Below, piece by piece: positions 1-2,422 of a stretch of 2,422 nt of DNA (positions are counted from its first letter, which is position 1; every line of letters begins with the position of its first letter). The notes beneath the pieces are model-generated. The model made no database searches and was not told the DNA's origin. It worked only from the letters and a program-made list of their open reading frames with translations. Source of the DNA: a virus (Duplodnaviria; Heunggongvirae; Uroviricota; Caudoviricetes). Location: the IMG/VR virus record IMGVR_UViG_2703718840_000014; one strand, written 5' to 3'. The position numbers and the translations under genes are program-made.

Positions 1-97
1 AAAATAATCTCGGTGTGAGATGCTTTACGTCTTCCAAGCCCCCTTCCTTGCCGTAAATGGAAAGATACATCTAATTATAGAATTTATATGTTTTACC

Positions 98-673
98 CTA
101 CGGCAGTGCTGGCCATTCAATATCCTGTGCAGTTGACGTATCAACACGGTTCAGCAATACCCGATACTTTTTCCATGCTTCCAGCAACGAGATTTCTTCC
201 TCCGTTGCGATTTCCAGATCTGCAGCATCCTGAAGCGGCGCAATATGCTCACTGGCTACCTGCATCAGGTTGTTTTTTGTTTCTTCCGCCTCCCGGATCC
301 GGAACAGTTTTTCTGCTTCCGTATCCTTCACCCAGGCTGTGCCGTTCCACTTCTGAAACTCCCCTTCCGGCGATAACCAGGTAACATTTTCCGGTAACGG
401 ACCGAGTTCAGAAATAAATAACGCGTCGCCGGAAGCCACGTCATAAACCGTTTTACCCCGATGATCTTCAACGAGATGCCACGATGACTCATCACTGTTG
501 AAAACAGCCACGAAGCCAGCCGGAATATCTGGCGGTGCAATATAGGTACTGTTTGCTGGCAGACCTGTATGAGGCGGAATATATGCATCACCTTCACCAA
601 TAAATTCATTAGTTCCGGCCAGCAGATTATAAATTTTTATGGTCCGTGGTTGTTCACTCATTCTGAATGCCAT
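98..673 (-). CDS. tfa: Tail fibre assembly protein (lambda Tfa family, 191 aa)
   Basis: Translation [43 protein letters not shown]…[25 protein letters not shown] is recognisable as lambda/Rac-type Tfa. ATG at 673-671 overlaps the upstream stf stop (TAATG). GAGG lies 8 nt upstream of the ATG. TAG stop at 100-98. Confidence 0.9.
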
Positions 674-849
674 TATGCAAGCCTCACAATATAGTTAAAT
701 GCGATGTTTTTGACGGTGTTTTCCGCGTTACCAGCAGCGTTAACGGTGATGGTGTGTCCATGTGAACCAATCGCAACCGAGTGCGTATGCGCACCAATAC
801 CTACAGTATGTGCGTGTGCACCTGCGCTTGCAGCAGTACCCGATACGCA
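673..849 (-). pseudogene. stf: 3'-terminal remnant (~58 codons) of a side tail fibre gene (stf / T4 gp37-like distal tip with HxH motifs); no start codon or N-terminal body.
   Basis: Hand translation of the minus strand in the frame ending at the TAA (675-673) gives [58 protein letters not shown]. It carries three HxH motifs (HAH 816-808, HTH 789-781, HGH 762-754), characteristic of phage long-tail-fibre C-terminal tips. The stop overlaps the tfa start as TAATG. This frame differs from the H frame. Confidence 0.7.
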
Positions 850-1054
850 TGGCGGCTTTATACTGCCCGACGGAAATCCCCGCTTTCTGTGCAGCCAGCG
901 CCTGTCGGCTCAGCGACTGTTCAACGACTGCCGCTGTTTTTTTCGCATCACTTTCCGTACCGGAAAAATGACGCCTGACTCTGGCCATCTGCTCGTCAAA
1001 TCTGGCCGCATCCAGACTCAAATCAACGACCAGATCGCCTACCGGTTCAGCCAT
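740..1054 (-). pseudogene. H: Truncated tape-measure gene H: 70 authentic N-terminal codons (1054-845) followed by 34 out-of-frame codons read from stf-like DNA, then a stop.
   Basis: Translation [70 protein letters not shown] matches the lambda gpH N-terminus as I recall it. It then switches to Cys/Arg/Trp-rich nonsense ([34 protein letters not shown]) and stops at 742-740. Lambda gpH is about 850 aa. Strong Shine-Dalgarno AGGAGGAG (1068-1061) with a 6-nt spacer before the ATG at 1054-1052. Confidence 0.8.
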
Positions 1055-1481
1055 ACCGGACTCCTCCTGCGATCCCTTCTGATACTGTCATCAGCATTAC
1101 GTCATCCTCCGTCATGTCCGCCACATCCGGGGAAGTAGGGATAACTTCATTCCCGTCCGGGCCAAAGCGGACACCTCCGGCAAGCCCTGCCGCTTTCTGC
1201 ATCAGCACATCATCTTCAGGCTCTTCGTCAGCCTCGCGCCGGTTCAGCAGACTGAAATCCAGCGGATGCATATCCGGATCGCTGAAAAACAGGCTGAGCA
1301 CGGTGTACGTCAGCCCGGAAAAGTGCATATCCAGCAGAACATCATGAAAATAATGGGTACTGTAAAAGCGGTGCCAGTCGGCATACTCCGTGGATGACAT
1401 CCCGGCAAGCATGGCACGCCAGTCGGGTCGCCCCATCTCACGCGCCAGTTTCAGGGCAAAACTCAGCTCACCGTCGAACAC
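1047..1481 (-). CDS. T: T reading frame of the tail assembly chaperone; expected to be expressed only as the G-T fusion via the -1 frameshift (fusion spans 1047-1885).
   Basis: Translation (M/V)FDGELSFALKLAREMGRPDWRAMLAGMSSTEYADWHRFYSTHYFHDVLLD… matches what I recall of lambda gpT. The frame is -1 relative to G and overlaps the G 3' end. The first codon in the track is GTG, with no independent Shine-Dalgarno, as expected for a frameshift-only product. TGA stop at 1049-1047. Confidence 0.85.
   Translation of the reverse strand: MFDGELSFALKLAREMGRPDWRAMLAGMSSTEYADWHRFYSTHYFHDVLLDMHFSGLTYTVLSLFFSDPDMHPLDFSLLNRREADEEPEDDVLMQKAAGLAGGVRFGPDGNEVIPTSPDVADMTEDDVMLMTVSEGIAGGVRYG
1061..1068 (-). promoter_or_regulatory. 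Shine-Dalgarno sequence (AGGAGGAG) for H, embedded in the 3' end of the T frame
   Basis: Seen in sequence: minus strand reads gcAGGAGGAGtccggtATGGCTGA, with a 6-nt spacer. The H ATG (1054-1052) lies 5 nt upstream of the T stop (1049-1047), so the two genes overlap. Confidence 0.6.
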
Positions 1482-1885
1482 TTTCCCGCAGAAACAGGCT
1501 CTGCGGGCCCGGCGTCCTCTGTCTGTTCAGGGGCATTATTCACCACAAACTCATACATACCGGACAGCCGGTACACCACGTTTTCAGCATGAGAAATTGC
1601 CTCCGTGGGCCAGGTGGTAAGCACTTCCTGCTCAATCTGTTTAACGGCTTCATTCATGGACGGCAGCTTTGTCTTCTGCGGATGGTTATGCCACAGGGAC
1701 ATCGCCACCAGAAACGCGCCGGTTCTGATGGCGTCTTCCACAGTAAACTTCCGGTTGCTGTCTGACTCCGCCTGTTCTGCCTGCCGTTTCATCAGGGCGA
1801 GATGCTCAATACGCTGCAGGGCTGACAGTTCAGAAAGCGTGACGGTCACACCGTTATGTTCAAATGATTCGGTTTTCAGGAACAT
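1463..1885 (-). CDS. G: Tail assembly chaperone gpG (140 aa)
   Basis: Translation MFLKTESFEHNGVTVTLSELSALQRIEHLALMKRQAEQAESD…SAGKCSTVS is recognisable as lambda gpG. ATG at 1885-1883 is preceded by GGAGAG (1897-1892) with a 6-nt spacer. TGA stop at 1465-1463. Lies 15 nt downstream of the V stop. Confidence 0.9.
   Translation of the reverse strand: MFLKTESFEHNGVTVTLSELSALQRIEHLALMKRQAEQAESDSNRKFTVEDAIRTGAFLVAMSLWHNHPQKTKLPSMNEAVKQIEQEVLTTWPTEAISHAENVVYRLSGMYEFVVNNAPEQTEDAGPAEPVSAGKCSTVS
1481..1487 (-). promoter_or_regulatory. -1 programmed ribosomal frameshift slippery heptamer G GGA AAG (G frame), joining G to the T frame
   Basis: Seen in sequence: plus strand 1481-1487 is CTTTCCC, i.e. GGGAAAG on the minus strand, read as G-GGA-AAG (…A-G-K) in the G frame, 6 codons before the G stop. 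A -1 slip reads GGG-AAA then GTG-TTC-GAC… (V-F-D-G-E-L…), which is the T frame. Established knowledge: lambda G-T is the classic tail-chaperone frameshift. Confidence 0.8.
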
Positions 1886-1900: not shown

Positions 1901-2422
1901 TTAACTGGCGGTGACGGTAATTTCTGCAACCGCAGCAAGTTCACCATTACCGGATACAACCGGAATGTTGACCTTGCCTGCAGCAACACCTTTCACGGTG
2001 ATGGTCATACCACTGACCGACACGGTGGCTTTTGTTTTATCCGCAGACACCGCACGGAAGCTCTTGTCGGTTGCGCCTTCCGGCTGGAATGCCACGGTCA
2101 GCGTGGTGCTCTGCCCTTTCACCACCGAAGTGCTGGCAGGCGTCACGGTCATGCCGGTTGCCGCTGTTACCGTGCTGCGATCTTCTGCCATTGACGGACG
2201 TCCCACGTTGGTGACTTTCACCGTGCGGGTGATCACTTCCTTCGCCGTCACCGCTTTACCGATACTGCTGACCCAGCCACGGAACACATCGACCGTGCCG
2301 TTCGGGAAGCGGATTTTATAGGCACGGGTATCACCTTCATTAAACCACGCCAGCAGCGCCTGCTGCCCCTGCTCTCCGGGCATCCACGCCAGCGTGAAGC
2401 TGGTATTGATCTTACCCAGCAA
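1901..2422 (-). CDS. V: Major tail tube protein, lambda gpV-like; C-terminal ~173 codons including the C-terminal Ig-like domain. 5'-partial: N-terminus lies beyond the window end.
   Basis: ORF-track translation (…[56 protein letters not shown]…[18 protein letters not shown]) matches what I recall of lambda gpV. TAA stop at 1901-1903 on the minus strand. ORF is open to the window edge. Position immediately upstream of G fits lambda gene order. Confidence 0.9.

Follow-up and report, generated by a model that had tools for sequence, protein, structure and literature searches.

A 4-bp deletion joint between the tape-measure and side tail-fibre genes of a Qin-type cryptic prophage in Escherichia coli

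The window, by which we mean the whole 2,422-nucleotide stretch of DNA that was analysed, carries the tail genes V', G, T, H', stf', and tfaQ in this order, all of them on the minus strand. At its left end, a spacer (1..97) extends from the stop codon of pinQ, which lies just outside the window, to that of tfaQ; pinQ is annotated at 19410-20000 of the PSJ-12 locus, and base 1 of the window corresponds to 20001 there. The tfaQ gene (98..673, minus strand), which is intact according to both its ORF and its annotation, encodes a tail-fibre assembly protein of 191 amino acids. Next to it lie the last 57 codons and the stop codon of a side tail-fibre gene (stf', 673..846, minus strand) and then H' (843..1054, minus strand), a remnant of the tape-measure gene that consists of codons 1-70 plus two nucleotides of codon 71, is recognized by its match to lambda, and is a pseudogene in the PGAP annotation. 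The deletion joint is the 4-bp microhomology at 843..846 (ATAC, or GTAT on the coding strand), as delimited by three-way comparisons with AW1.7 and USMARC-50748, and a fused ORF of 104 amino acids (740..1054, minus strand) runs across it, joining H residues 1-70 to 34 out-of-frame residues encoded by stf DNA. Further to the right, the T reading frame (1047..1481, minus strand) and the intact G gene for a 140-amino acid tail assembly chaperone (1463..1885, minus strand) were both supported by ORF and annotation, and V' (1901..2406, minus strand) retains the last 167 codons and the stop codon of the major tail tube gene, which is cut in codon 79. The window closes with the first 16 nucleotides of the left end of IS3 (2407..2422, plus strand; TGATCTTACCCAGCAA), which are also present in the IS3 of PSJ-12.

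In phage lambda, T is expressed as a G-T fusion (gpGT) through a -1 frameshift at a GGGAAAG heptamer. This slippery heptamer was read from the sequence at 1487..1481 on the minus strand, and the features of a lambda-type tail module, i.e. the V-G-T-H order, near-identity to lambda, and the G-T heptamer, are all present in the window. The lambda frameshift heptamer, G, and T are conserved and intact though the tape measure that they chaperone is gone. The full-length tape-measure gene (853 codons), M-L-K-I-J, and a full stf gene were absent from the window, in which H is reduced to codons 1-70 and stf to codons 1060-1116.

Within tfaQ, position 544 of the window holds a single mismatch that makes the protein D44Y relative to the TfaQ of PSJ-12, AW1.7, and USMARC-50748. 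The exact Y44 protein was found on 23 contigs, and Y44 TfaQ was also observed beside full-length stf genes in other assemblies (4 loci). The only Rfam match in the window, to IS009 (RF02111; 132-330, minus strand, 221.7 bits), lies wholly within the tfaQ coding sequence and on its coding strand, and its probable cause is the conservation of tfa as coding sequence, not the presence of a separate RNA. At the other end, the window departs from PSJ-12 at 2407, and the join at 2406/2407 cuts V, which in its full form spans 21901-22641 of the PSJ-12 locus. In PSJ-12, the same IS3 16-mer (25554-25569 of the locus) lies 65 nucleotides upstream of the IS3 transposase start and 3.1 kb further right than in the window, between cspI and rzpQ. 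The V/IS3 join was not found in any complete E. coli genome searched, and the same IS3 end abuts, in the same orientation, codon 3 of G in two other draft assemblies (positions 1-130; one of them is GCA_902825625.1). The draft contigs break in the IS. The positions of these ends suggest either that nested deletions next to IS3 have eroded the tail genes or that IS3 has inserted repeatedly.

The 104-amino acid ORF, read from 1054 to 740, was identical to lambda gpH over its first 70 residues (70/70, ending in GQYKAAMR), after which it reads I where lambda has M71 and continues, through 34 unrelated residues in all, to a TAA stop at 742-740. At the DNA level, 843-2406 of the window matched lambda 10753-9190 with 98.7% identity and a dozen E. 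coli chromosomes with 100% identity, and all E. coli and lambda matches to this right part ended at 843. The second minus-strand frame (846..673) encodes 57 residues with three HxH motifs (HAH, HTH, and HGH) that match the C terminus of lambda Stf (orf-314 residues 248-314, E 1e-30), and its stop codon overlaps the tfa start codon as TAATG. This stf' stretch showed 100% identity to full-length stf genes at their 3' end, and 1-846 of the window matched the stf 3' end and tfaQ of intact Qin-type prophages, so that the left and right matches overlap by 4 bp, at 843-846. In H, GTAT spans codons 70/71 (C-GT AT-G), and in stf it starts codon 1060 (GTA T-CG). A previous, sequence-only reading of this DNA had proposed that H is truncated at codon 70 and fused out of frame to the 3' end of a tail-fibre gene whose HxH-bearing C terminus ends at the tfa start, with the joint somewhere within 841-850. 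All of these points were borne out, and the joint was narrowed to 843-846; the alignment to lambda and to prophages broke at the predicted place and resumed at the 3' end of stf, and the search for microhomology that it had recommended revealed the four shared base pairs. Natural variation of gpH past residue 70 was considered as well and was rejected, given that the H sequence runs on beyond 843 in lambda and in more than 3,000 E. coli genomes. The RefSeq/PGAP annotation labels stf' as a pseudogene "missing N-terminus" and H' as a pseudogene "missing C-terminus", and in line with this existing annotation we regard the out-of-frame H'::stf' ORF as a pseudogene.

An undeleted form of the same locus was found in strain USMARC-50748 (NZ_CP104117), where the gene order is Z-U-V-G-T-H-M-L-K-I-J-lom-stf-tfaQ-pinQ-ydfK-ynfT-ydfJ' and stf encodes 1116 amino acids. 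The window differed from it by 2 mismatches over 843-2406 and by 1 mismatch over 1-846, i.e. by 3 over 2,406 bp. The two GTAT copies are located at 5619-5622 and 17762-17765 of the USMARC-50748 locus, 12,143 bp apart; only GTAT is common to both sites, and no bases were inserted between them in the window. Both flanks are collinear with this one undeleted relative and meet at a short shared sequence that contains no filler DNA, and because both flanks match an undeleted relative, the question of chance does not apply to the junction. The deleted 12,143 bp comprise H codons 71-853, M, L, K, I, J, lom, and stf codons 1-1059. The sequence-only reading had anticipated the loss of about 780 codons of H, all of M, L, K, I, J, and lom, and most of stf, and exactly these are missing in comparison with USMARC-50748; in lambda coordinates the equivalent gap runs from about 10754 to about 21772 (~11.0 kb), against the roughly 10 kb that it had estimated. 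Strain AW1.7 (NZ_CP073624) showed the same breakpoints, with an interval of 13,480 bp owing to an IS2 in its J gene. Its stf allele differs from the window at 754, 778, 790, and 802, all of them synonymous third positions in the stf frame, and USMARC-50748 is identical to the window at these four sites. AW1.7 was accordingly rejected as the exact left parent in view of the four clustered synonymous differences, and USMARC-50748 fits better. Because the four differences are synonymous and USMARC-50748 matches exactly, stf' derives from a distinct, once-functional stf allele and shows no visible decay since, which speaks for a recent loss.

The chromosomal setting of the junction was provided by PSJ-12 and 23CRST024, two E. 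coli strains isolated from human faeces in Ecuador whose closed chromosomes matched 1-2406 of the window with one mismatch. In their annotation, the order is ydfJ'-ynfT-ydfK-pinQ-tfaQ-[stf' pseudogene]-[tape-measure pseudogene]-T-G-V-U-Z'-ynfO-ydfO-gnsB-...-cspI-...-rzpQ-rrrQ-...-relBE-...-dicB. The source of the window is almost certainly the draft contig LOOF01000027.1 (GCA_001576305.1), of which it would form the terminal 2.4 kb: this contig encodes the exact TfaQ, has a V' ORF of 173 codons at its end, shares the flank on the ydfJ side, and begins with bases that equal the last ones of the window, offset by one. The tfaQ-pinQ-ydfK-ynfT-ydfJ'-ydfI order is present in the source contig, in PSJ-12, and in 23CRST024, and the Qin end of K-12 is alike. 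The source contig ends in IS3, and the Qin cargo that surrounds the identical junction was read in PSJ-12, where it includes cspI, cspB, cspF, rzpQ, rrrQ, relBE, hokD, dicB, and ydfD. By these sequence matches, the window belongs to a cryptic lambdoid prophage of the Qin type that occupies the ydfJ locus of E. coli, and it forms the end of that prophage at which the tail genes lie. The decaying prophage that the sequence-only reading had offered as one of three alternatives proved to be the right one. The Qin prophage of PSJ-12 showed in addition a second deletion outside the window (23041-23617 of the locus), by which a Z fragment devoid of its N terminus adjoins ynfO, and it is devoid of all of the head and packaging genes (nohA to the 5' part of Z) that AW1.7 and USMARC-50748 carry.

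Judged from its flanks, the same scar is also present in a prophage remnant at att-lambda. In GCA_902825625.1 (CADEBP010000023.1; 1-4600), the junction tract was identical to 548-1883 of the window, with 0 mismatches, and its tfa showed 20 differing positions leftwards from window position 547. The flank beyond tfa contains a GGDEF gene, the att core, ybhB, bioABFCD, and uvrB, and the 15-bp lambda att core (GCTTTTTTATACTAA) lies at 3976-3990. Because the identity ends inside tfa, recombination between lambdoid prophages at the two loci is indicated, and the copy at att-lambda would most likely be the outcome of homologous exchange between them, the crossover lying in tfa. The presence of the same junction at att-lambda makes it uncertain that Qin was the locus in which the deletion originally occurred.

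The allele is rare in E. coli. Of 5,426 complete E. coli genomes, only 2 contained the whole of a query that spans the junction (760-930 of the window). The exact 104-amino acid product was called on about seven contigs from independent assemblies, and beyond the two closed genomes the exact fused ORF was present in at least four further independent drafts. The junction was absent from all of the 50,697 phage records searched, and hence the possibility raised by the sequence-only reading that intact phages might carry H residues 1-70 and a fibre tip in one continuous in-frame ORF found no counterpart: no phage record shows this arrangement, and the ORF is out of frame.

We consider it most probable, with a probability of roughly 0.9, that microhomology-mediated illegitimate recombination deleted the block between H' and stf' in a Qin-type prophage as a step in prophage decay. 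According to this proposal, a single illegitimate recombination event would have joined the two GTAT copies, which lie 12,143 bp apart, and in doing so would have removed everything from codon 71 to codon 853 of H, the M, L, K, I, J, and lom genes, and codons 1-1059 of stf. Replication slippage or another microhomology-mediated, RecA-independent way of joining ends appears the most likely pathway. The product would be the out-of-frame H'::stf' pseudogene, left between intact G/T and intact tfaQ. By our own calculation, a microhomology of at least 4 bp is expected in about 1.6% of random junctions, and the four base pairs observed here are suggestive, but not decisive, for the pathway. Lambda tail formation requires the tape measure, M, L, K, I, and J. 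Since all of these are lost, the prophage cannot build a tail, in agreement with the earlier claim that no functional tail is possible when the tape measure, the tip genes, and most of stf are absent. The deletion of the tape measure, tip complex, and fibres would thus constitute one decay step, and the event was presumably neutral rather than selected.

Several other origins of the junction were weighed against this proposal. An assembly chimera, in which two prophage fragments were wrongly joined in a short-read contig, would suit the position of the window at the very end of its draft contig, whose final 2.4 kb run into an IS3 repeat, and also the presence of several copies of lambdoid tail genes in E. 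coli (a median of 3 matching places per genome). Nevertheless, PSJ-12 and 23CRST024, two different isolates with complete chromosomes, both have the identical junction, the exact fused ORF recurs in the at least four independent drafts mentioned above, and an overlap of 4 bp is too short for misleading an assembler. The identical junction in the two closed genomes and the independent drafts, which bear indirectly on read support across the joint, thus excludes the misassembled contig that the sequence-only reading had entertained, and an assembly chimera retains a negligible probability. The deliberate construct that it had also listed is excluded because the carriers are natural isolates with the junction inside a chromosomal prophage. 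An invertase would be suggested by the fact that pinQ directly adjoins tfaQ, and in prophage e14 the active recombinase PinQ rearranges tail-fibre genes (PMC12529663); we counted both in favour of a deletion by PinQ or another Pin/Gin-type enzyme acting at crossover sites in H and stf. An enzyme of the Pin/Gin/Hin type should be betrayed by a crossover site of about 26 bp, containing the e14 repeat CCTTCTCCCAAACCAA, at each of the two breakpoints, and such a pair of sites was not found there. The e14 P-segment repeat was unmatched, at up to 3 mismatches, in the window and in 22 kb of the undeleted parent; the Pin crossover repeat was likewise not found in the 1..97 spacer; the core AAACCNNGGTTT matched at chance level, with 7 sites found versus 8.6 expected and none at 843-846; and the parents have just 4 bp in common at the joint. 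Deletion by an invertase is therefore exceedingly improbable. Insertion sequences have been active in this prophage, with IS3 abutting V in the window, an IS2 in J and an IS1 in pinQ of AW1.7, and two IS3 copies in 23CRST024. However, an insertion sequence could have made the deletion either next to a single copy or by recombination between two copies, and in both cases a copy of the element would remain at the joint. Instead, H is joined directly to stf, and comparison with AW1.7 and USMARC-50748 revealed no IS end there. This origin is, in consequence, highly unlikely.

A different view of the remnant is that the host has kept it, so that G/GT, the H' peptide, TfaQ, and PinQ form a domesticated module and the deletion was selected for its function. 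The G, T, tfaQ, and pinQ genes are indeed still intact, the identical 1.3-kb junction tract occurs at two prophage loci (Qin and att-lambda), and Pin and Stf genes of cryptic prophages can act in phage defence (PMC12529663), which was counted for this view. Against it, the junction is rare among complete genomes (2 of 5,426, as noted above), all copies are identical and thus carry no selection signal, and the tail of the fused ORF is out-of-frame sequence. Furthermore, V is cut by IS3 in the source of the window and G is cut in GCA_902825625.1, which looks like ongoing decay. Selection of the deletion for a host function is hence judged very doubtful indeed, and a related scenario, in which the 1.3-kb block G-T-H'::stf'-tfa(5') spreads between lambdoid remnants because the host retains it, tfaQ and pinQ included, as a domesticated module, is highly improbable too. 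If domestication were true, the chaperone or fibre-assembly parts might be reused in phage defence instead of being debris shuffled by homologous recombination.

Under the preferred explanation of a microhomology-mediated deletion, the window is a clean example of a cryptic prophage losing its tail genes in one step, for which both parents and the 4-bp joint are available. As deletion scars go, the junction is ordinary; the cryptic prophage that bears it is well known, and reference genomes in RefSeq already record both halves as pseudogenes. Its significance beyond bookkeeping is small. As a lineage marker, it could help to recognize a rare group of strains, and it indicates that the Qin remnants of different E. 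coli lineages have decayed through different deletions, H::stf here and nohA::stfQ in K-12.

Compared with known systems, the joint resembles the microhomology-mediated (illegitimate, RecA-independent) deletions of bacterial chromosomes and prophages in its clean junction at a short direct repeat, here of 4 bp, with no filler and no mobile-element end, and no feature sets it apart from them. The undeleted Qin-type prophages of USMARC-50748 and AW1.7 occupy the same locus, with flanks that are 99.9-100% identical and a TfaQ that is identical save for D44Y, but they still have the complete H-M-L-K-I-J-lom-stf block lost from the window, which measures 12,143 bp, or 13,480 bp in AW1.7, where it includes the IS2. 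With respect to phage lambda (NC_001416), the V-G-T-H(1-70) segment shows 98.7% DNA identity, the G-T slippery site is conserved, and the Stf C terminus and Tfa are homologous, although the stf tip in the window is devoid of one 9-residue, HxH-containing repeat that lambda possesses. The Qin prophage of K-12 (Kim; b1543-b1579 region) lies at the same site and has the same end, ydfJ'-ynfT-ydfK-pinQ-tfaQ, followed as here by a truncated stf, and it shares with PSJ-12 the cargo genes ynfO, ydfO, gnsB, cspI, rzpQ, rrrQ, cspB, cspF, relBE, and hokD. In contrast, Qin of K-12 MG1655 has suffered a different and larger deletion, by which a 963-bp stfQ abuts nohA (a Nu1 homologue) and V, G, T, and H are all gone, whereas in the junction-bearing Qin only 174 bp of stf remain, abutting H codon 70, and Z'-U-V-G-T survive.
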